Assembly: GCA_028534125.1 (NCBI GenBank)
Contig: CM052816.1
Coordinates: 69,194,001-69,258,000 of the forward strand
Length of the DNA stretch: 64,000 bases
Direction of reading: 5' to 3'
From: Lama glama
Taxonomy: Eukaryota
Each line of letters opens with the position of its first letter. The first letter of the stretch is position 1. Below, in pieces: positions 4,360-54,719 of the stretch. The translations under genes and the position numbers were made by a program. Under the pieces are notes generated by a model that was given only the letters and a program-made list of their open reading frames with translations, did no database searches and was not told the origin of the DNA.

Positions 4360-4822
4360 AATGAGTTCCCTCCAAGCCAGATAAAACTCAATTTCAGGTA
4401 GTTTATTTTGAGGTTAATCCCAGGAAACTTTGGTAAGGGAATGGGGAAATAAGACAGGGAAGGAAAAAGAACAAATGAAGAGTTTATTATTAAACAAGTT
4501 GCCACTGTAGGTAACTAGAGCTGAATCCTGTTGGGGAATTCTGGGATCCAGTGTATAACCTGCACCTTGGAGTTCTCTCCCCACAGGGTTAAGGAAGCTG
4601 GAGTAATTAGGTTTTCCAGCCATTAATTGAAGAATGCTGGGGGATGGTGAGGGGGCATTAATTCCCCAACACTTCCAACTTGCCATATAGGTGACAAAGT
4701 AAGCTCTGTAGACCACAGAAAACCCTCAGGCAAAGAAATGCAGGTGCTAGAAATTGGACAGATGTGTGCTTCACTGGTCAGGGTGAGGGGGCGTGGGGAA
4801 GGGACAGACGGTGGCTGCTACA
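4360..4822 (-). mobile_element. ERVL solo LTR (LTR16C-like)
   Basis: Reverse complement begins TGTAGCAGCCACCGTCTG and contains gcacctgcatttctttgcctgagggttttct and ctccagttacctacagtggcaacttg-like LTR16 motifs. Confidence 0.8.
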
Positions 4823-14145: not shown

Positions 14146-15588
14146 GCATTCAAACACCTCCAAACATATTCCAGCAGAGCTGTACCAGCACAGATTGAGA
14201 AATTTACATGAATTTCTCCACTTATGAGCCTGGATAAAGTAAAAGTGGCTGGACACTACCTTTGAAAGATGAGTGCCTCCTCACCTCACTTTGGGTCCTA
14301 AGGCTGTCCTTTAGGAATAGGTTATCGATCCCACCCACCCTCCTTTTTCAAGAATGCAGATTTGGATAAAACTATACTTTTTTGATTACAGGTCACATAA
14401 ACCAAGAATATCCACTAGCAGTGCTGAATAGGCAATAGAGTGTTCCTTGTGAAGAAATACCTTGCCTAGTGTGAGAGAGGAAAGCTTATCCAACTCTTGA
14501 GTGCATTCTTCCTTTTGTATTTCCCTCAAAGGTGAGAAAAGCACAATTCTTCTACTGCAACTCCTTCATTTCCACATCATTCAATATGGTAGATGGTGCA
14601 ACGCTCTTATAGGAATGAAAGACTTATTCCTATAGGAAGGTCAGACAAACTGTCTTTGGCTGTCCTCCCCAAAGGGATGGCCTCAGGCAAAGAGAGACTT
14701 ACAAATATACACAAACACACAGCCTTACCTCCTTCCTGTTCCTGGGTAGTCCATCTCCAATGACTAATCAAGAGGTAAAAAGTATTTTCCCTCCTCTCCC
14801 CAACATGGGGACCTCTGAATATGATTCCATCTTCAGAACTCCCTATAGGATTGACTGTGTCTTCCACTGAGATATCCAGCATTGAAGTTCAACTTCTCCT
14901 GGTGCCCAATCCTGATTTCTTCTCTTTTCTTCTGCTGGTGACAATCCCAAGAGTACACATTCAGAGACAGCCTACACAGTGGTCTGTGTTCAAGTTTGCT
15001 ACAGGGGACCAGTTTATGACTCAAGCCTTCACTTATTTGATTGTCTGGACCTTATTGGGGGACAAAAGTTTCTTTTTCAGAGGTGCTCTAATTGCAAGAA
15101 CTTTTATTTAAGTAATAGGAAATCTCTGTTGTTCTTTCTGCTAATTTGGACAACTTTTCAGAAAATTTCTTGGAAATCACTCTGCAAGGACCATCAAGAT
15201 TTTAGCACATATCCTTCCAAATTCACCCCCCAGTTCTTCTCATATTCAACAAACAACTTCAGGGGAATAGCAGAGTCCTGATTCTTAGAGATGAAAACTA
15301 GTACCTGTTCCTAATCATAGCTGAGGACGCTCAATAGAGTCAAAGTCTTGGATTTTTAGTTTTCTTAAGAATCCAAGTTTTTTCTCTTCCTGAGAATGGG
15401 CCACTCCAATGCCAGTAGTATCTGTAACTGGGTGGGAACTGCAGGGCTACTTCTAAGATAAGCTATATGTCATCTTGTGAAGAGAGGTGGCTCTGAAGAT
15501 CCCTGAGAAAACCACTGTTTGATCGGGTTGCTTTAATTAAAATCAGTAAGTGACTAAGGTCTTACAATGGAGGTTGGTAGAGGCAAAG

Positions 15589-16087
15589 TGTCACCAGAAA
15601 AAGCCCACAAAAGACTAATATAGGTCTAACCTCTTCTTTTGTGCTTAGTCTATTTTCACTTGCCTGTAGGCGGCCGTGTGCAGAGGCCTTGCACCTATCA
15701 GTTTGGTGCAGAACAGCTTTGCCGGACACCTCAGCTTGCTCGTGTGGAGAAGTACTGTGAACGGCCCCTCAGCACAAGATGGCGAGGAGCGCCGAGTGCA
15801 CGGACGCTGGGGCGCTTCAGTCTGCAGTGCTGTGAGAAACCCGCGCCTGCGCACCACACGCGCAAGCGCCGCCCCCTTGCCGCTGAGGAGAACCCTGCGG
15901 GGCAGCCGCCAACAGCCGGTTTGCCGGGAGACGGCGTACTCTAGAGCCGGAGCGTGCGCCTCTGCATTCTTCCGTCAAAGAATAAAACCTTCCTTTGCTT
16001 CTGAACCGATCTCGGTTTGTTCTATGGACTGGAAGGACACTGGGCAGAGGACCCTTGTGGGAGACTGACTGGAAAAGGTCAGTAACA
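15589..16087 (+). mobile_element. ERVL LTR (MER76-like), unusually CpG-rich
   Basis: TGTCACCAGAAAAAGCCCAC...CAAGATGGCG...AATAAAACCTTCCTTTGCTTCTGAACCG...GGTCAGTAACA matches recalled MER76 termini; TSD is degenerate. Confidence 0.78.
15760..16083 (+). promoter_or_regulatory. Candidate LTR-derived CpG-island promoter and first exon
   Basis: YY1 CAAGATGGCG 15775-15784; NRF1-like GCGCCTGCGCA 15843-15853 and GCGCAAGCGC 15860-15869; GC box 15869-15876; donor AAG/GTCAGT at 16077/16078. Confidence 0.55.
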
Positions 16088-16184
16088 GAAGTTTCATTCC
16101 TTCACCCACTCTATCCTTCAAATCACTGAAATTAGAATCTGATTAAATTATTATCTGAGGAAAATACACATCCATAGCCCCTTT

Positions 16185-16442
16185 CCCCCAGCGTTATTGA
16201 GGTATATTTGAGGATACTTACGCGTACGTGATAATTTGATACACATTTACGTTGTGGAAGGATTCCCTCTCCTTGAACTAACACAATGGTCACCTCACAC
16301 GTTTAACTTTTTTTTCTCTTTTGGTAAGAATATTTAAGTTCTATTCTTTTAGCAAATGTTAATTGTACAATACAGTTTTATCAACTCTGGTCACCGTGCT
16401 GTAGGTCGCATCCTCAGAATTTATCATCTTACAATGGAAAGG
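16185..16442 (-). mobile_element. Old L1 (L1MA-like) 3' end
   Basis: ttattgaggtat...ttttagcaaatgttaattgtacaatacagttttatcaact...catcctcagaatttatcatcttac. Confidence 0.7.
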
Positions 16443-16626
16443 CTTTCATCAGGACCATAGCATTCGGAGGTTAGTATCATCAAGCCGTGGCAGCCAGTTT
16501 AATACTGACGCCTTTTGCGCTTGTCCCCTCCAGATCCATGGAGATGCAGCCTCGCAGCCTTAGATCCTTTGTTAGTTTTACAAATGAGTTTTATTTTCAT
16601 AATGCATACTAGGTTTAGGAACATCT

Positions 16627-16776
16627 TTTTGGGGATATTTATCTGTGTATTTATTTTTATTGAAGTATAGTTGATTTACAGTGTTGTGTTAGTTTCTGGT
16701 GTACAGCATAGTGATTCAGTTATACATATATACATATTCTTTATCATTATAGGTTATTACAAGATAGCGAATATAC
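16627..16776 (-). mobile_element. Short young L1 3' end
   Basis: tattgaagtatagttgatttacagtgttgtgttagtttctggtgtacagcatagtgattcag; probable TSD GAACATCT at 16619-16626 and 16777-16784. Confidence 0.85.
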
Positions 16777-17149
16777 GAACATCTAAAACATCTATTTTTA
16801 ACAAGTAAAATCATATTAAAAACCAGCAGAGCTGGGATGTTTTTCCGTTTAAGGGTGGCAGTAGCAGAGCACTGGGGAAATTTAACTGTTGTTTTACTGG
16901 TTTCAATAAAATGAAGATGTTGAGGATTATGAGCTCTCTTGACAGATTTATTTACCTTCAGATGCATGTATTGGTCTGGGGAGGGATGGGGTTAAAAGAG
17001 AAAAGGGACCTAGGAGACTAAAGGCTTGTGGTGAGGACAACCCACAGGGAACTGCGGGCATCCTGCGATAACATTCCACGGGATTCCACAAGTTACGCTG
17101 CATATTGATTCCCTGGAACCCAGAGTTCTGGAGAGACTTGCCCCAAGCT

Positions 17150-17470
17150 GCCAAAGGAAGAAGTAACCACCCGGGAAGGCAGATTAGTAATAGTGACACC
17201 GCCCCCTCAAGTTCAGGCGGAGAGGCCGTGGTCGGTGGGGCCTGTAGTGCGGGGTCTTGGCCGTCCTGTCCCCATGCTGCCCGCTCTCTGGGGCCTGGTC
17301 CTCACTGCCACCCCCAGGGCCGGGAGGCTGCCCTCTGCGCTCGGCCCGCTCATATCGGCGGGTCTGGTCTCGGCCAGCAGCGGCAGGAGGCAGGGTGGCT
17401 GAAGCCGGAGAGCGAGCCCAGCCGCAGAACTGGTGAGGTGCGCCCCTGGCCCCTGGGCCTAGGTCACCTG
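17150..17470. promoter_or_regulatory. Non-repetitive GC- and CpG-rich block (small CpG island)
   Basis: About 20 CpGs counted by eye in about 300 bp; GC boxes; donor-like CTG/GTGAGG near 17432. Confidence 0.5.
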
Positions 17471-18665
17471 GTGGTTGGGTTTGTCCTCCATGAGAGGAAA
17501 AGACAATAAGAGAAGGAGAAGATGAGAAGTGAAAAGGAACTTCTCCAGCCCTGGGAGCGTGTGTCTGAGGGCACATTCTGATCTGAATGTTCAAAAGTCA
17601 GCAAGGCTTTCCGGAAATGCACCTTGAGAACCTGGCTGAGGAGCTGAACATTAGTTCTATTTTGACTTTGCCTCAAAGTATCAAAACATTCACTTTCTCA
17701 TTATGTAGGATAAGGTTGAGAAGACTTTCAGTCAAACAGTATTTATAAACTGCTTGAGATCCTTATGCGATGAAAGAAATTTTTATCTTGATACCTGCTG
17801 TTTGGAAATGTTTTCAGGAGCCTGAGGGTCTGGGTGTTTCTTGGCCATAGAACTTCAAAGAATAAAGTAAAACTGGCCTGCATTGGACCAAAGAGAAATT
17901 TGCTTTTTGCTTTGGAGATGAAGGGGGAAGACAAGGGGAGAAATGCAAGGAGGAAGAGGCAAGAGCACAGAGCACAGTGGAGAGAGATGAGGGCCAGGTC
18001 CAACAGCCCAGTTGCCCAGCCTCATAGGCCATTGAAGAGATGCTGGGGGCTGCCCTTCATATGAAGTTCTGTGCCTTGCTGTGTCGTGAGACTCCATTTC
18101 TGCTCCAGAACCATCCATAAAGACTTGTCTGTTCATATTTCTTTTTGGTAGAACTCAGAGAAGGGGTGGTTGTTTTATAGGCAGAGAAGGAAGACCTCAT
18201 GGGAAACTGGGCTCCCAGGAATTCATGAAATTCCTAGGCTTCTGACAGCTAAGGATTAGGGAGAGTGGGGTCAAATTAATTTGGTTTCCAACTCCAAAAG
18301 ACAGGGATCCACTAAGTAACTTCTGGGTCACATAGGTAAAAGAAAATTAAATACCATTTAATTTGTATTCTGGAATACAAAAGAATACTTTTCCTATTCC
18401 AATACAGTTAGTTTTGTAATACCATTAGTGCTGAGCTCTGTGTGGCACAAAATTGGAAAAAAACTGGCCCTCCTTTCAGATGGGGTGAGCACGTAAATTA
18501 ATGAATACCATACAAGAGGGTAATTAACAGAGCTAAGAGGAAAGGTAATGTTAATGGGTAGGAAGGAGGAACTTTGAGGAGTACAGGTCATGCCTCTATC
18601 AATAAGATGTAAAGAAATCACTGCAGTGTCGTCTGCCTAGAGCCTCCTCCTTGAGGAGTCAATTC

Positions 18666-18755
18666 TTAGCACAGATTTTGTTAAGTCTGGAATGTTTGAA
18701 AGTCTTTTTCTTTAGCACAGATTTTGTTAAGTCTGGAATGTTTGAAAGTCTTTTT
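18666..18755. repeat. Perfect 44-bp tandem duplication
   Basis: TTAGCACAGATTTTGTTAAGTCTGGAATGTTTGAAAGTCTTTTT at 18666-18709 and 18712-18755. Confidence 0.95.
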
Positions 18756-21239
18756 AGGGTACTGCGGTTTTCTGAGTATTTCCTTCAAGGACTTTGTGCC
18801 TCATAAAAAATCTTCTGTATTTCTGTGGGAGTGATTTCTTAAGAAAAACAACAATAATAATAAAGATATTTTGTAACTCTTGGGTTACCACCTCAAGGAG
18901 AAAATAAAGAAAGCATTGTATAGAAAGTAATTGCAAAGGCAGTGGTGCCTTCATCAAATGGTCCCTTTGCTCCAGATGCGGGCCTTCTAGGGGAATCAGA
19001 AGAAGATTTCTTCCTGGTCAGATAGGTCTGCAGTGCTGCTCAGGCCATGTAACCCAGAGTATCTCACTATTAAGGGAAATTCTGAATCAGGGAACACAGG
19101 CATTTACAGATTTTTTTCTTTCTACTCTTCTAACATCTATACCTTGTACTTTTGCTTTAAAGATGTTTGACGTATTTTTTTCTAATGGCTTATTGTGTGT
19201 TATGATGCCCTAATGGATTTAGAATGAAAAGTTTCAGATTCAAATTCTGACCTTTTTACAAGCTGGTTGTGTGAACACAAGCAAACCACTATGTGAAGCC
19301 TCAATTTCTTCATCTATAAAGTGGACTGCTGATAACATCTGACATTTCGAAAAGCCTTTCTTGGGCTCAACCCAAAGTGCTGTCCAACTGGCAATCCTTA
19401 AATCAAGCCTTTGAGAACAGTGGGAGAGTATGTAGTCTGTTAGCTTATTATTTGTGTAATTCTCTTTGACTCTACCTTTTCTAACCCTTTCTATATTCCA
19501 TGCACTGTATCCAATGCTTGAGTCTGTTGTCTAATTTATTTTCACCACCACCCTATGAATTCAGCACTACCATCACCCCGTTTTATAACCAGAGACACCA
19601 AGGCTTCATTCAGGTTAAGCAGTTGCCTGTGATCACCCAGCTGGGAACCGAGACAACCTAACGCAGAGCCCATACCTTGGAGCCTCCTCCAGAAAGTGGC
19701 CACACTGTTCTGTCCCGAGTCTCCATCTAAAGCTCTCTTCACCCCTCATCTTGCACAGACATGTGTGCCCTCCTGCCTGGAAAGACTGATGGAAGTTGCT
19801 CAGTACCATCCTCCCACTTATATTGGCTATGTCACCAGCATCTCTACTTGCAGAAATCTCTGAGTGGTGTCATCTCAGGCCCTTGGGTGAAAAGATTTGC
19901 TGCAGAAACTGTGAGCTTCTTCCAGTGTTTGGAAAGTTTTGCGAGATGAATGGTGTCATTGGTCTTTCTGGGCTTGGTACTGGAGCCCCTCGTGTTTATG
20001 AGACAAGGGATGATGAGCTGCCTGGCTCCTCCCCAGTTGGCAGGCAGCAGCAACCATTTCTCACACCTAATTGGAGACTGCAACAACACAGTGCCAGCTC
20101 TCCAAGACCAGGCTTTGCCATTCACTGCCAAGTGATGGAAAACCCTCTGACCTGCCTCCTGATTGTTTTTAAATTAAAAGGTACTTTAGGGACAATTGAA
20201 ATTCCCCCAAGTGCTTGTCTGAATGATTTTGGCAGCTTCTCCCAAAGTGCTCTGGCTCCCAGCGCAACCACCCAGCCTCAGACTTTCCACCCTGTGCAGG
20301 CCCACGCCCTGCCTGTTTTATGAGCGCATGCTCTAGGCACTGAGCCAGCTCCTTGCCTGCTAAGGCTCTCTCCTGCCCAGCAGAGCTGGCATCTTTGCCC
20401 CAGGTCGACCAGTGGAAAGAGAAGCTGGTGAAGGGCCCTAGAGTCTGCTCTGGGTTTTGAGAAGAGCACCTCCCAGAGACTCTGGTTGGACAGCACACCT
20501 GTGAGCACTCGAATGAGATGCTTCAGGGGTCTTTGCTAGACCTGTCTGCCAGGGAGCACCCTTGCTGACTGAGGGTTGCTGCTTTCACAGAACCCTTGGG
20601 GGTTTTCCTTCTTGCCCTCGAGGATCAGAGCCATAGGCAGTCAAAGCTGAAAGCAGCACTAGGGAGAACCCACTCCAATCCCAAAGTAGGCCTATGGACA
20701 TGGGCAAGTGGCCTCTTGTTTAGCAATGAGTTCAGTGCAGAACTGGGACTGTGATCTGGGCCTCGTGTGGCCCAAGCTGTGCTCTGTCGCCACCCTTGTC
20801 TTCCGTGCCTCACTCTGCCACTGGATGGCTATTCTCCTCACCTCTTTCTTTCTGCTGGAAAGATAGGTTTATGGGCTATAATTTGAAGATGGAGAAAGTT
20901 ATGGGAGGCTCTGGAATCTAAATGGTCCATGTAAAGATGCAACTGAAGGAAGATACTATAAGAATCCATTTCTGTTTTAAAATGACTGTAATTATCTGAT
21001 GTAATCCAGATCTTATTCCCCTCAAAGCTGTTTTAGGGTCAGGATGTACTGAGTTGACTTTTTCTGTTCTTTCCCGACCATCCATGTTATTATCATTTCA
21101 TCATTGTCCCAATGTTCTTTTCTTCCTTTCCTTTCAGTGGGCCCTTTCAGGGCATTTTGTCATGTCCCAAAGCTGTAACTAGTTTTTCCTCCTTGCCTTC
21201 TCCTTTCCCATTTATACTCTCCCATTGGTGTTACTGGTT

Positions 21240-22414: not shown

Positions 22415-23730
22415 TCCTTTATTACTATGAAATATTTCAAAGTAGAGGGAAGTACATTACACTTATGTACCCACCATACAGATTGCTTTTTTAAAAAGAG
22501 GTTTAATAAAATATGGCAAAACATTTAGAAAAAAAACATTTCAGATATAGTTGAAGCTTCCTGTGTATCTCTCCCAATCACATTTCCCTCCTTTTCTCCT
22601 CGTAGGAGCCAACACCATCTTCAATTTTCTATTTATTTTTTAATAAAAAAATTTTTTTAATGTTTTTAATGGAGGCACTGGGGATTGAACCGAGGATCTT
22701 GCACATACTAAGCACACACTTTACTACTGAGCTATACCCCAACCCCTCCTATTTATTTTTCACAAGAAATGTTTTTTACCACATATATATGCATCCATTA
22801 ACAATATTTAGTAAAAATATATATATATTTAGTATGGTTTTGCTTATGTAAAATCTTTATAGAAATGATATAAGCTGTATGCTATCCATCTGCAAGTTAC
22901 TTTTCTCATCAGTGTGTTTTTAAGAGATTTATACCTGTAGATACTTGTAGTTTTATTTTATTAATTTTAGCTACTATAGAATCTTCCATTGTGTGAATAT
23001 ACTACAACTTACTTATATGCTCTTCTGTTGATGGGTATTTTTGTTATTTCCAGTTTTTCACAATGATAAACATGCCACAAATGAACTTTCTTATCTGTAT
23101 ATCTTTGTATATGTGTAAAAGTCTCTGAGAGGTAGACACATGGAATAAAACTGATGAGTCTAACAGCAGACACATCTTTATCTTGATATGTTATCAAATT
23201 ATTCTCCAGATTCTCTTAGTAATAAGAATTACCATTTCATACTCATCAGACTGACAAAAAAAAAAAAAAAGTCTAACACCCCCAAGTATTAGAGATATTC
23301 TGGAGAACTAAGATCTCACAGTTCTTTTAATTTGCATTTTCTTACTTACTAGTAAGATGGTGCATTGCTCATATTTATTTACTATTCTGGGTTCCTCTTA
23401 TGTGTGTTGCTGGTTTATATCCTTAGCACATTTTTCTATTGAATATTTATTGGCTTCTTTTTCTATTGATGTAGGAATTCTTCTTATGTGCTGGATATTT
23501 TTCCTTTGGTCATTATGAGGGTCAGTTTTCTTCTCCCAGTCAGTGGCTGGTATTTTCACTCTGATAAATTTGACTGCATTAAAAATTTTTTAATTTCTAT
23601 TTTTAAAAAAACCCACTATAAATAATATTTTCCTTTGCAGTTGATTCTTTCATGCCTTATTGAAGAAATCCTTTTCTACCTTGAGATCATAGAAATATTC
23701 TTATGTGTTTTTTCTTACACAATTGTAATC
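22415..23730 (-). mobile_element. Ancient L1ME 3' region with a nested SINE and an internal micro-inversion
   Basis: ttccattgtgtgaatatactacaac...ttttaatttgcattttc...ttgaagaaatccttttctacc. Confidence 0.7.
22641..22748 (-). mobile_element. Camelid tRNA-Ala-derived SINE (Vic-1-like)
   Basis: Reverse complement ggggtatagctcagtagtaaag...cggttcaatccccagtgcctccatt plus A-rich tail; TSD CTATTTATTTTT at 22629-22640 and 22749-22760. Confidence 0.88.
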
Positions 23731-24899: not shown

Positions 24900-26372
24900 A
24901 TCAGTGGGCAGTTGAGACATAGGATTTCAGAATGTGGGCTCTGAAAAACAAAGAGGGAAAAAGACTGAAACAAAAACAAAAACAAAACCCAACAGAACAG
25001 AATATCCAAGAACCATGGAACAACCATAAAAGGTGTAACATAGGCATAATGCAAATAGCAGAAAGACAGGGAAGGAAGGAAAGAAGGAAGGAAGGAAGGA
25101 ATAAAGGAAGGGAAAAAGGAAAAGAAATATTTGAAGCAATAATAACTGAGAAATTACCCCCAAATTAATGTTATATACCAGCACACAGACCCAGGAAGCT
25201 CAGAGAACACAGCTCAGGATAAAAACTAAGTAAATACTAAATACTAAGTAAATACTAAAAATACTATATACTAAACAAACAAACAAACAAACATGCAGCC
25301 CATTTAAAATATGTATGTTTGTTTGCTTGCTTTTTAATTGAAGTACAGTTGATCTAAAATGTTGTATTAGTTTCTGGTGTACAGCATGGGTGGACTTAGA
25401 GGACATTATTCTAAATGAAACGTTAGAGAAAGACAAATACTGTAAGATATCACTTACATGTGGAATCAAAAAATACAACAAACTAGTGAATATAACAAAA
25501 GAAACAGACTCACAGATGTAGAGAAGGAACTAGTGGTTACCAGTGGGGAGAGGGAAGGGGGAGGGGCAAGATGGAGTTAGAGGATTAAGAGGTACAAACT
25601 ATCAGGTATAAAATAAGCTACAAGGTTGTATTGTACAACATGGGGAATATAGCCAATATTTTGTAATAACTATAAATGGAGTATAACCTTTAAAAATTGT
25701 GAATCACTATATTGCATACCTGTAACATATAATATTGTACATCAACTATACTTCAATTAATAAATATGATATTGTAAAATAAATACATAAATAATGTTAA
25801 AAAATACTAAGTACTAAAAGATAAATACTGAAAAACCTATGCCCAGGCACATCATAGTCAAACATCAGAAAATCAAAGACAAAGAAAAAAATCTCGAAAG
25901 AATCCAGAGGCAAATAACACCTTGCCTATAGAAGAGCAAAAATAAGAATTACATCTGACTTTTCAGAAATCATATATGCAAGAGAATGGAGTGAAATATT
26001 TAAAATGTTGCAAGAAGAACACCACCATTGTAGATTTCTGTTCCTTGCAAAATTATCCTTCTCAAAAGTGAAGGAGAAATAAAGACTTTCTCAAATAAAA
26101 ATTGAGGGAATTTTTTGCCAGTAGAGCTTACTTGCAAGAAATGTTAGAAGAAGTTCTTCAGAGAGAGGAAAATAATAGGTCAGAAACTCAGATCTACATA
26201 AAGAAAGGAAGAGCATCATAGACGGAATAAACAAATGCACTACTGTGGTGTGGGATGTGAATGGTGGGGGAGGCTGTGCATGGGGATAGGGGTACATGGG
26301 AACTCTGTGCTTTCTGCTCAATTTGCTGTGCACTTAAAACTGCTCTAAAAAATACAGTGTATTAATTTTTTA
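24900..26372 (+). mobile_element. Old L1 (L1MC/MD-like): ORF1 remnant fused directly to the 3' terminus
   Basis: ORF1-like gaaatatttgaagcaataataactgag...ggagaaataaagactttctca, then 3'-end text caaatgcactactgtggtg...aaaactgctctaaaaaatac. Confidence 0.75.
25325..25800. mobile_element. Nested L1 3' pieces in opposite orientations
   Basis: Minus-strand terminal 60 bp (ttttaattgaagtacagttgat...gtacagcat) abuts a plus-strand 3'UTR (ggtggacttagagg...caactatacttcaattaataaa). Confidence 0.8.
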
Positions 26373-35801: not shown

Positions 35802-36301
35802 NNNNNNNNNNNNNNNNNNNNNNNNNNNNNNNNNNNNNNNNNNNNNNNNNNNNNNNNNNNNNNNNNNNNNNNNNNNNNNNNNNNNNNNNNNNNNNNNNNN
35901 NNNNNNNNNNNNNNNNNNNNNNNNNNNNNNNNNNNNNNNNNNNNNNNNNNNNNNNNNNNNNNNNNNNNNNNNNNNNNNNNNNNNNNNNNNNNNNNNNNNN
36001 NNNNNNNNNNNNNNNNNNNNNNNNNNNNNNNNNNNNNNNNNNNNNNNNNNNNNNNNNNNNNNNNNNNNNNNNNNNNNNNNNNNNNNNNNNNNNNNNNNNN
36101 NNNNNNNNNNNNNNNNNNNNNNNNNNNNNNNNNNNNNNNNNNNNNNNNNNNNNNNNNNNNNNNNNNNNNNNNNNNNNNNNNNNNNNNNNNNNNNNNNNNN
36201 NNNNNNNNNNNNNNNNNNNNNNNNNNNNNNNNNNNNNNNNNNNNNNNNNNNNNNNNNNNNNNNNNNNNNNNNNNNNNNNNNNNNNNNNNNNNNNNNNNNN
36301 N
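35802..36301. other. Assembly gap (500 N)
   Basis: Run of exactly 500 n. Confidence 0.99.
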
Positions 36302-40382: not shown

Positions 40383-43300
40383 GACCTAAATGGTGAAGCA
40401 TGGTGAGACGTGCTGCCAACATGCACGTCTTAGGAAGGAGCATTCCCAGCAGAGCAAGCACAAGGGCCCTGGGGTGAGAATAAACATAGCATTTTTAAGA
40501 GACAAAAATATAGAAATGAGGCCACATCTCCAGAGTCCAGTTTTCGCTGGTACTTTGGAAAGGAGGTTTGTCTTGGGGACCTGTCACATCTGAAAAATCA
40601 GACAGAGCAGAGCAAAGCATCCTAACAAGGAGATACAATCGACAGATATTTACTTGCTTGTAGATATATCCACTTTGCAGCCTAACCCTGACACTTTGCC
40701 AAATTTTTCAAAATTTTATATTCTATTTTTAAAAACATAAAATCAAGTGTTATTAATACGTTTGAAACCTTTTACTGGAAATACTCATCTTTTGATTTGA
40801 TGTTGGAAGCCTTCAGCATTGATTTTTTTCAATATACTATCATTTATTATTCTCTCCCAGCAGATAAAATCTATAGCTGGAGGGAAGTAGAATATCAAGG
40901 ATGAAGGGACATCTAAGAGAAAGTTTAGAATGTCTAGAAAATAGGTGTCTCTCTTCTCACATGAATATGCAGTTTTTTAAAAAAATAAAAACATACAGTT
41001 TAAACAGTGAAGTAAAATAAATGAAACCGCATTCTACAAGTCTCCCAGAATACATGTTTTCAGTATTCCAGATCAGCAGGATGGTGGGTTCAGGAGGAGG
41101 TCAAAACGTAACTTATCCAACTTTTGTTGTTGGTTATCACAACACTGAAGACTGAAATGTTCTTTCTTTCAAATCAAAAATCTGTTTTCTGTGAATTTTT
41201 TGCAGTTTTAGTGAACTTAAATATCTACTAGAATGCTGTGAGTCACATTCTAATAATAGCCATCACCATCATCCTCTTACTCTTTTATATGTGCTGTTAT
41301 TAGTACTTCAGAAAGATCAACAGATACGGACGGAGGGGATACAATGTGCTGTCATCTCCTGGTGGCTCAGTGTATGATACCTCAACAGGGGTCAGCCAGC
41401 ACATGATGACTTTCAGACCCAGAGCAGTTAACAAACTGCTGGTGGGTCAGCAAGTAAGTGGTGGGCCGCTAGGGTCCACTTCCAAGGGACAAACCCAGCA
41501 CCATGGCCTCCAATTCTTTATGAAGTGGAAACTCACTATTTTTGTTTTATTTTTATTTTCTTTACTTATTAATTTTAATATTCCTAATATCTTTAGCACT
41601 AAATCTTCTTAACCATTATATGTAAAAGACACCATCCTTCCCAATTATTCTTCCCAAAGGCATCAACTATTAGCTGTTTCTTTGGGGTCTTTTCAGAATT
41701 GTCTTTCTATGTTTATAACAAAGTATAGTATTGTATCCAATCATAATATACCATATCTTATCTGTTTTCCCTTGTGAATGGTCTACACTGTACACATTGT
41801 TGGACAACTTGAACTTTTCACTTTGCTCAGTACCTTGGGCGACCTTCCATGGCAGCAAATCAGCATTTTGAAAGTGCCCCCTGCAGAATCACAGACCTTA
41901 TGGTTTCTCTGTGGTTCACTGCTTGTGTCTGAAGAATAAAGTTACTGAAATGTGTCCAGATCGTGGTTTTCAAGAGAAAGAAATCCATTGTATATATAAC
42001 TGACTTCATCCCAATGCATGACTTTGCTTTGGCTGTTAGTATATTATTTTCCTTATCACATCATCTGAGATAATTAAAGGACTTTGAAATGTCGCCTTCA
42101 TTCCTCTTATGGCTTGTGAACAAAACTCTCACAGGCTTTCAAATTTGTCATTTCAACAAATATCCATTTTGACAGCCCAGGTCAAGTAATTTCTCTAAGA
42201 GAATATGTATAAAATGAGATCCAACTTGAATTAATTACCATAAATTATGAAACAAATGGGTCACCATGCTTGTGAATTTACAAAAGACTTAGAAAAAAAT
42301 ATGAATATTTCTTTCATAAATCTTGTAAGATGATAATTTATTTTGCTTTTAGTGGCATATGAAAACAGAATGAATTCCTTGTATATTCGATGTCTCCCTC
42401 TTCAAAGAGGTACTGGTGGCTTCAAATAAGGGATTAAATTAAGATTTCATCAAAATCACATAAAACATGATTTTGAAAAGTGATGGATCTAAATAATGTC
42501 CAAAAAGATGGTGAGCTTTACCCCTTTCCCCCATAAACAAAGCAGGCTTTGATCTGGTCTTTGTGCTCTGAGGAGACAATGTGACTCTTCATGGAAGACA
42601 TGTCACTAGAATACAGGAAGGAAGAACTTACATCCACTTTATTTTGTCAGGCCCTGGCCTTGAAAGTTTTTATAACCAAATTAATAAATCTCTGTCTTGG
42701 GAATATGTTATACCCTCCTAAACAAGAAAAATGCAAACTAGAACAGCACATTTTTCTTGCTATCATCAACAGCCCCACCTAAGCAAGATATTTCCTATGA
42801 AATATGGTATGAAGGCTTTATTATTGAGCAGAATTGTTTCATTTTATTTTGTAACAGCTTTAGTGAGATAATAATTCACATACCATACAGTTCACCCACA
42901 CTTGGTTTTCAGTTCAAATTTCTCAACTTCACTAAACCTTAGTCTTTTTATCTGTAATATGGGAATAAATAATAGTAAGACCCACTGATTTGCTGTGCAA
43001 ATTAACGTGTCTATGGCCCATAGTAAGTGCTGAATAATGAAAACATAATAAGATTTAATTTTTACATACAACATTTGTTGTTGAACTTCGTAATCAATCA
43101 TGTCTCTAATTCGGATTTCCTGCTTTGACAGTGGAAACTTTAATCCTGTTGATTTATGGTAATTTCCATTACTGGATTTAGCTCAGTTTAGCTGAAGCTA
43201 AATCTGCCTCTTCTGATTAAAAATGTAGTCAATGAAAAACTCTGTCCCTCTTCTGCTAGGTTCAGTCCCAAGCTCTATGGGGCCCTTATGACATTGTGGC

Positions 43301-44029
43301 TGGTCTGCACCCACTCGTGCTCTGATGTGGAGACTTCTCTCTCCTCTTGGGATGGGCAGTGCAAGGAGATGGGTGGCTACAGGGCATCTTGATGCCTCCT
43401 CTGCCATTCTGAGCCCCAGAGGATGCTTGCTGTTACCTCTGCTGCCCTCCAAGTGTTCAATGGACAGGGGCATCTGCAGGGCTTCAGCTCTTGGGAGACC
43501 CAGGCAGGAAATGGGGCAAACGTTCACTGCCACCCTTCAAGTCCAGACTGCGGGCCCCTTGCTGCACCCGCATGGAGGCAGGAGGGGAAAGGGAGGCACT
43601 GCACCTGACTTTCTTCCTCTTTCCAAACTCTGTTGTCCAATCCTGTTCAGGTTCACAGCACAGCAGAAAAAGCTGGGCTCTTGGTTCTGCTTGTTTCCAT
43701 TGACACCCCATAGTACCCCCGACCCTTGGCAACTGAAAGTCTGAAGGGAGGGTGAGCCTGAGAAAGAAAATGGGACTGTGCATGCAAGTCAATGAGTTAC
43801 TATAGCCATGAGGTATTCCATATTAATCTATATCCCTAACTTTACCTCATCACCACAAAAACATTCTCCACTGTCTTCTCTGAGTGCAGATTTGTTCCTT
43901 ACTTTTCTCTCTTGGAAGATGAAATCTGAAGGGTTTCATAATTCTAGATTTACTTCTCTGTGTCCTCACTTCTTGCTTCCATTCTTTGGTCTCTGGTACC
44001 CTGTACATGATGTGCTGCCCTATATGGAG

Positions 44030-44484: not shown

Positions 44485-44599
44485 TGGGACACACTGTGTT
44501 GTCTTTCCAGCTCACTGTTGTTCTGGGAAACCTCCCTCCCTCCCCATTTACTGTGAGAGCAGCCATGTTGAACAACGTGACCCCAGTTTTGACTGGAGT

Positions 44600-44945
44600 T
44601 CACCAAGAACTTGCATTTCAGACCAGGGAGCAAGTCTCCAGTGACGGAAGCTGAAAAATACAAAACTTGGTAACTGCCAACAACTGTGTTTTTCACAACA
44701 AAGAGAGAGCCAGTCTGCCACAAGACAAAGCTGGCACCCAGAGAAGCAGAGACGAGGCTGGGAGGGAGCGCTGGCGGCTTTCCAGCGCTGGCTCCATCGG
44801 TGCCGCAGGCTCCAGCTCTGTGGGGACCTGGCTGTGGCCCGAATTCCAGAAGACTGCCGTGACTGTCTGGTATATTCCTCTTTTTATCTAGGCTGACTTA
44901 TACAAGGTTTGTGGCACTTGCAACTCAGGCTTCTAGTTGATATAT
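44600..44945 (+). mobile_element. MaLR LTR (MLT1K-like) remnant
   Basis: aagctggcacccagagaagcagagac...ttcctctttttatctaggctgac...ggcacttgcaactc. Confidence 0.5.
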
Positions 44946-52410: not shown

Positions 52411-52515
52411 TTTTTTTTTTCAATTTTTCTTTTTTAATGGAGATATTGGGAATTGAACCCAGGACCTTGTGCATGCTAAGCATGTGCTCTACCACTGAGC
52501 TATACTCTCCCACCT
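52411..52515 (-). mobile_element. Camelid tRNA-Ala-derived SINE (Vic-1-like)
   Basis: Reverse complement gagtatagctcagtggtagagcacatgcttagcatgcacaaggtcctgggttcaattccc plus A tail. Confidence 0.88.
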
Positions 52516-54551: not shown

Positions 54552-54719
54552 GGAGGAAGGGTATAGCTCAAGTGGTAGAGCACATGCTTAGCATGCTCAA
54601 GGTCCTGGATTCAATCCCCAGTACCTCCTCTGAGAATAAAGAAATAAATATACCTAATTATCTCCCCTTCCAAAAAAAATGCTGAACAAATAAATCACTG
54701 TCCAAGAAATATTTTTAAA
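54552..54719 (+). mobile_element. Camelid tRNA-Ala-derived SINE (Vic-1-like, long form)
   Basis: gggtatagctcaagtggtagagcacatgcttagcatgctcaaggtcctggattcaatcccc (A and B boxes); TSD AATTATTGAG at 54542-54551 and 54720-54729; inserted in an L2 tail. Confidence 0.92.

Follow-up and report, generated by a model that had tools for sequence, protein, structure and literature searches.

A solo LTR in a CpG-retaining two-island domain of the llama genome as a candidate promoter

Introduction

Why does a solo LTR that appears to be old still carry a dense cluster of CpG dinucleotides, and does this richness reflect a promoter that is in use? The question is raised by positions 15589-16087 of a 64-kb stretch of the llama genome, the whole of which was analysed and is called the window in the following. 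The original prediction held that this LTR has stayed unmethylated in the germ line and acts as a promoter. Repeat-derived CpG islands and LTR promoters as such are known already, and about 60% of human CpG islands are repeat-associated (PMC4509998); the locus is thus a new example and not a new mechanism. A description of it was not found in a literature search of partial coverage.

Anatomy and family identity of the LTR

The element itself comprises the following features.

15589-16087, + strand: solo LTR with near-inverted terminal hexamers and a poly(A) signal
15981-15986, + strand: poly(A) signal AATAAA, some 100 bp short of the LTR 3' end
16075-16083 (junction 16078), + strand: predicted splice-donor-like site AAG/GTCAGT at the LTR 3' end

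The solo LTR is recognized by its TG...CA ends with a short inverted repeat (TGTCAC at the start against TGTTAC, the reverse complement of the end, matching in five of six positions) and by the poly(A) signal near the 3' end. An intact target-site duplication was not found at these ends, which are flanked by the 5-mers CAAAG and GAAGT, and such a loss is the expected erosion in an old insertion. Alternative ends that would be accompanied by a duplication (10 candidates from many trials) were judged to be chance. No TATA-like word is present in 15780-16000, and the donor-like site at 16078 ranks at the 99th percentile among the GT sites of the window.

From a likeness in its 3' part we take the element to be an ERVL-type, MER76-like LTR, and two further LTRs of the window, which serve for comparison below, are presumably LTR40 (1032-1527) and LTR16 (4360-4822). 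The likeness to MER76 in the 3' part is accompanied by the TG...CA ends and by the position of the poly(A) signal, some 100 bp before the end, and the name is to be read as a lead only. MER76 and MER76-int are found among the unclassified ERV3/ERVL-type entries of a Repbase table (PMC5753468). No second copy of the LTR was detected within the 64-kb window (best E 0.24 by blastn with the remainder of the window), and a pattern scan for other copies of the family gave no match in viral contigs. The 51 pattern matches in metagenome contigs were dismissed as chance, none of them aligning beyond 37 bp.

CpG richness of the LTR

The LTR (499 bp, GC 0.57) contains 31 CpG by count, with an observed/expected ratio (o/e) of 0.77. 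All 31 lie inside an island core, where the original prediction had counted about this number by eye, and 24 of them are packed in 15775-15975 (o/e 1.02).

15668-16020, no strand: CpG-island core of the LTR, GC 0.62, 31 CpG, o/e 0.91

The outer parts of the element are free of CpG (none in the first 79 bp, none in the last 67 bp), and these ends as well as 15668-15774 (o/e 0.55, TpG+CpA o/e 1.56) carry signs of decay, which counts against the reading of the LTR as a promoter. The two comparison LTRs, which belong to other families, contain a single CpG (1032-1527, o/e 0.05) and two CpG (4360-4822, o/e 0.09), in agreement with the one or two each that had been stated, and the whole window has a CpG o/e of 0.147. 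GC content alone is insufficient to account for the richness of the LTR, because the GC-matched stretches 20201-20650 and 43251-43750 reach o/e values of only 0.17 and 0.13. The segment 15459-16205 is the sole island in the window by Takai-Jones criteria (at least 500 bp, GC at least 0.55, o/e at least 0.65). A tandem array was considered as a source of the CpGs, and none accounts for them. The GC skew is about zero across the LTR and positive solely in 16601-17000.

CpG retention beyond the LTR

The original prediction saw a single isolated island in the LTR, a point in which it has to be revised, since CpG retention continues past the LTR and a second island about 1 kb downstream had been overlooked. 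In a maximal-segment scan, a single block at 15671-17442 stands out (1772 bp, 71 CpG, o/e 0.68) with a score of 69, as compared to 9.6 for the runner-up segment of the window. Its three parts are the core of the LTR, an AT-rich spacer of 962 bp and the second island, so that the CpG-rich zone reaches about 1.35-1.4 kb past the LTR.

16088-17049, no strand: AT-rich spacer, GC 0.37, 16 CpG
16533, + strand: predicted acceptor-like site in the spacer
16955, - strand: predicted donor-like site immediately left of the second island
17050-17450, no strand: second, weaker CpG island, GC 0.64, 24 CpG, o/e 0.58
17433, + strand: predicted donor-like site CTG/GTGAGG, coinciding with the right edge of the second island

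Most informative in this respect is the spacer, which includes the 3' part of an L1 (about 16590-16775, alignable with other copies in the window) and, at 16170-16430, what is probably an older L1 relic. It holds 16 CpG where 4.0 are expected at the background rate (P 5e-6), and its o/e of 0.49 exceeds that of all 62 background tiles (maximum 0.28; sliding maximum 0.32). The spacer CpGs are unevenly split, with 13 in 16088-16600 (o/e 0.69) and three in 16601-17049 (o/e 0.24). The shore is accordingly one-sided, with an o/e of 0.10 in the 500 bp to the left of the LTR core and 0.60 in the 500 bp to the right, and the right-hand shore declines to 0.24 ahead of the second island. The outer edges of the block are sharp, the flanking kilobases having o/e values of 0.07 and 0.09. 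The second island is non-coding and present as a single copy within the window; its possible origins include a host promoter, the 5' end of a retrocopy or another repeat.

As the spacer lies outside the LTR, the CpG richness is a property of the place, and a richness that belongs to the locus would therefore indicate low methylation in the germ line. We consider it likely, judging from the sequence, that the LTR locus is hypomethylated there; the corresponding claim of the original prediction is thus supported by the CpG retention in an unrelated AT-rich spacer and by an insertion shared with a relative (see below), with low methylation itself being deduced from the retained CpGs. In human sperm, the DNA between two low-methylated islands that are 500-1000 bp apart is less than 15% methylated, while a methylated neighbouring island goes along with a steeper shore (PMC4509998), and the pattern at 15671-17442 would fit such a pair in which both islands are low in methylation.

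Some further features of the window are recorded here in their own right. The next-best CpG segment, 44540-44900, has a mild excess (10 CpG, o/e 0.40) that is far under that of the LTR locus. A perfect 44-nt direct duplication with a 46-nt spacing at 18666-18755 is either a recent duplication or an assembly artefact, and 35802-36301 is an assembly gap of 500 N. At 25307-25760, an L1 3' piece is nested in an older L1; its first 80 bp match copies in one orientation and the remainder in the other, which looks like a 5' inversion.

A copy of the locus in a relative

Three translations from Logan contigs, P0001, P0002 and P0003, were retrieved by protein searches with open frames. P0002 and P0003 span the right flank into the LTR, and P0001 covers the second island. 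As the former two begin in the right flank and cross the LTR, the LTR insertion is present at the same site in the relative. Each of the translations shifts frame twice with respect to the window, and because of these switches the matches are read as orthologous non-coding DNA and not as genes.

In the LTR, nine of 150 codons differ between the window and the relative, which corresponds to about 3% at the DNA level according to a simulation. These changes are balanced, with a CpG in the relative alone at three and in the window alone at three, so that a one-way collapse of CpG is not indicated in the LTR. The second island differs in 13 of 143 codons, and at four of these 13 a CpG in the relative stands against TpG or CpA in the window, whereas the reverse is found once, by a transversion. 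Across both islands, CpG-type transitions make up seven of 22 codon differences, which are small and unpolarised numbers. This share is best fitted by a 2-5-fold CpG transition rate; under an assumed rate of 15-fold its P is 0.006, under 10-fold 0.053 and under 1-fold 0.07. The CpG-type differences thus lean towards low or partial germ-line methylation.

Age of the insertion

The age of the LTR is bounded, on the sequence at hand, solely by the relative that is about 3% diverged. An older age of 65-100 My rests on the presumed family name. A half-life of 35 My for CpG has been quoted for the primate germ line (PMC7431005). With this value, a methylated copy of 65-100 My that started with at most 60 CpGs would have 8-17 left, and the probability of finding 31 is at most 7e-5. 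ERVL LTRs are CpG-poorer than young classes and mostly inert in cell lines (PMC6071641), so that an old copy with an o/e of 0.9 would indeed be an outlier, provided that its age is correct. A methylated copy of only 20 My with 45-60 starting CpGs could retain 31 at the same half-life. The result for the spacer CpGs holds regardless of the age of the LTR.

Regulatory motifs in the LTR core

The original prediction named a YY1 site, two NRF1-type sites and a GC box in the core, and all of them are found at the stated places.

15775-15784, + strand: YY1-type motif CAAGATGGCG
15842-15853, + strand: NRF1-type site 1, with GCGCnnGCGC at 15843; 11 of 12 consensus positions by eye
15859-15876, + strand: NRF1-type site 2 with overlapping GC box, with GCGCnnGCGC at 15860; 10 of 12 positions by eye
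15869, + strand: GC box CCGCCC

Against 3000 dinucleotide shuffles of the core, the YY1 9-mer (P 0.001, relaxed 0.009) and the two NRF1-type 10-mers (P 0.004) exceed chance, and both together occurred in none of the 3000, P values that are optimistic because the motif definitions were chosen after the sequence had been seen. The GC box, in contrast, is within chance in such shuffles (P 0.10-0.33), and the strict 12-base NRF1 consensus is matched by neither of the two sites. YY1 and NRF1-type motifs are absent from the second island. The block with the NRF1-type sites and the GC box has no change in 47 codons against nine in 103 elsewhere (Fisher P 0.058, one relative), and an excess conservation of this block was not seen when the unchanged run of 47 codons was judged as a longest run (P 0.30, again with one relative).

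Coding, RNA and expression searches

None of the 349 open frames of at least 55 aa in the window reached the Pfam cut-off. The best match, RhoGAP-FF1 at 1722-1895 (E 1.6e-4, below the cut-off), lies in A-rich sequence, where each of the three frames is interrupted by stops, and was put down to chance; we take this segment to be an old L1 ORF1 remnant. Protein searches gave one of 37 candidates with the + frame of the second island, none of 36 with the + frame of the LTR, one match with the - frame of the LTR and none of 111 with the - frame of the second island, and an Atlas search gave no usable match. Rfam found nothing at the LTR locus. Its two matches in the window are tRNA-like and distant; they lie at 22670-22741 and 52438-52509 and are copies of one dispersed repeat, presumably a camelid tRNA-derived SINE, of which a third, inverted copy is found near 54571.

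As to expression, 24 sequencing runs were listed that share words with 15300-17700. Five of these, from two studies, are recorded as RNA and carry reproductive-system labels, with 0.15-0.20 of the words, which is a lead only; nine runs guessed to be RNA have 0.12-0.26, and this share of words is likewise a lead only.

The LTR as a possible promoter and alternative explanations

Whether the old solo LTR is the stronger island of a two-island domain, with its TATA-less promoter in use on the + strand, is in our view evenly balanced from the sequence. An active promoter is plausible from the anatomy, and we would give it an even bet. In this scheme, the 1.8-kb two-island domain would long have been poorly methylated in the germ line, as its CpG retention suggests, and NRF1 and YY1 would bind the unmethylated LTR core. 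Transcription could start without a TATA box at about 15900-15950 on the + strand, between the NRF1 sites and AATAAA, as in the usual U3/R layout. In retroviral 5' LTRs, a nearby donor helps the read-through of the own poly(A) signal, and the predicted donor at 16078 may in the same way let transcripts bypass the poly(A) signal of the LTR, with splicing onward to the acceptor-like site at 16533 in the spacer or to the second island. No coding exon was found among the frames of at least 55 aa, and the most likely product would thus be either a non-coding RNA or, for some distant gene, an alternative first exon that is not translated. Factor binding and transcription might then exclude methylation and thereby preserve the CpGs. 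Such a self-keeping loop is suggested by the properties of NRF1, which requires unmethylated DNA for binding and was reported to bind unmethylated retrotransposon promoters and activate retroelements in mouse germ cells (PMC12420836), and the NRF1 motif is enriched in hypomethylated promoters of cattle sperm (PMC5928411).

The LTR is also the denser of the two islands (o/e 0.91 vs 0.58), and the shore that retains CpG on its right is as expected downstream of a + strand start. Against the LTR promoter, a - strand promoter in the second island explains the one-sided shore equally well, and the seven of 22 CpG-type differences agree only moderately with the rate for fully unmethylated DNA (P 0.07), so that partial methylation is possible. 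It also counts against the LTR promoter that ERVL LTRs stayed mostly silent in cell lines even after loss of repressive marks (PMC6071641), and that annotated start sites strongly exclude transposable elements (PMC7431005).

The second island could instead be the host promoter, with the LTR a bystander that is sheltered in the hypomethylated domain and keeps its CpGs, or has regained them by GC-biased gene conversion, without starting a stable transcript. We regard this as somewhat unlikely. A first exon might in that case end, for example, at the donor at 16955 on the - strand or at 17433 on the + strand, and the second island, a GC-rich single-copy segment, does have a donor-like site on either strand. 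The LTRs that are hypomethylated in cattle sperm are old, with an enrichment close to CpG islands and at up to 2 kb from a start site (PMC5928411), and adjacent islands reduce the methylation of each other (PMC4509998). In placentals, hypomethylated sites are commonly places of recombination with GC-biased conversion, although the main text of that source names no camelid (PMC11161765). At the locus itself, a test for GC gain gave an alignment score of 79 against a shuffle maximum of 91 for the older L1 relic, and unpolarised A/T-to-G/C counts of 11:8, 13:4 and 4:4 for the younger L1 piece against three copies. What speaks against a mere bystander is that the second island is the weaker one and lacks the YY1 and NRF1-type motifs, that the spacer CpGs are concentrated on the LTR side (13 vs 3), and that at four of the 13 differing codons of the second island the relative has a CpG in place of TpG or CpA in the window, with a single case of the reverse. 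An unlikelier explanation still is that in this LTR family a CpG-dense core resists germ-line methylation at whatever site it occupies and casts a passive shore, the present copy being one of many and having no selected function; the CpG-poor comparison LTRs of the window, which belong to other families, do not bear on this. CpG- and GC-richness alone was found to shield DNA from methylation when no targeting machinery recognizes it (PMC5001583), an island that had been inserted remained unmethylated in male germ cells at any place, LTRs are involved in 8% of the repeat-associated human islands (both PMC4509998), and the constraint on the motif block is not significant, as described above for one relative. 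Such a general habit is at odds with the lower CpG content of ERVL LTRs as a class in comparison to young classes (PMC6071641) and with the second island and the donor-like sites that adjoin this copy.

The least probable reading, and in our opinion a very unlikely one, is a young methylated insertion whose CpGs have yet to decay. The calculation for a 20-My-old copy would permit it (PMC7431005), and it is opposed by the presence of the LTR at the same site in a relative that is about 3% diverged, by the target-site duplication that is not intact, by the lack of a further copy in 64 kb, and by CpG-type differences below the prediction for a 15-fold rate. In addition, the non-LTR spacer keeps its CpGs, whereas methylation that spreads out of a silenced repeat would have the opposite effect. 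A bolder form of the LTR promoter would be that the LTR founded the whole domain, its NRF1/YY1 promoter having escaped germ-line silencing for tens of My, opened the downstream DNA and created or preserved the second island. It might now drive a lineage-restricted transcript in the germ line or early embryo (a lncRNA or piRNA precursor), or form a region that is unmethylated in sperm and methylated in oocytes and imprints a neighbour. We regard this as improbable and offer it as speculation; if true, it would document, with a date, how a retroviral LTR yielded a host-like CpG-island promoter.

Significance and comparison with known systems

If the LTR is a promoter, the locus would be a fossil record, readable from sequence only, of how a retroviral promoter evaded methylation in the germ line over a long time, and it lies in a livestock lineage, the camelids, with little epigenomic annotation. 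The pair of LTR and island offers a simple way to ask which came first, by comparing species that carry the insertion with species that lack it. CpG retention that spills into flanking relics flags an escape at the level of the locus and can serve as a screening rule, and we see the value of this work in a good candidate locus and in this rule.

Closest in layout are the repeat-derived pairs of low-methylated islands described by Grandi et al. 2015 (PMC4509998), which likewise have an island in a repeat and a neighbouring one at a distance of about 1 kb, with DNA in between that retains its CpGs. Methylation was measured there, whereas here it is deduced, and such islands are mostly SINE-derived, in contrast to the old LTR considered here. 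The hypomethylated LTRs of cattle sperm (PMC5928411) are also old and CpG-dense, lie beside a CpG island and come from an artiodactyl; they are located near start sites, whereas the llama locus has no known annotated start site. With the NRF1-driven retrotransposon promoters of the mouse male germ line (PMC12420836), the LTR shares NRF1-type sites, a CpG-rich retroelement promoter and a use that would depend on the lack of methylation, but those elements are young L1 and IAP copies that are normally silenced, while the old solo LTR seems to have escaped for long. The MER21C first exon at GPR1-AS/Liz (PMC12129452) resembles it in being an old solo LTR that carries factor motifs as well as a donor and, as proposed here, in giving rise to a lineage-limited non-coding transcript. 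It belongs to another family, and transcripts, reporter data and an imprinting function are available for it, where the present case is argued from the sequence.
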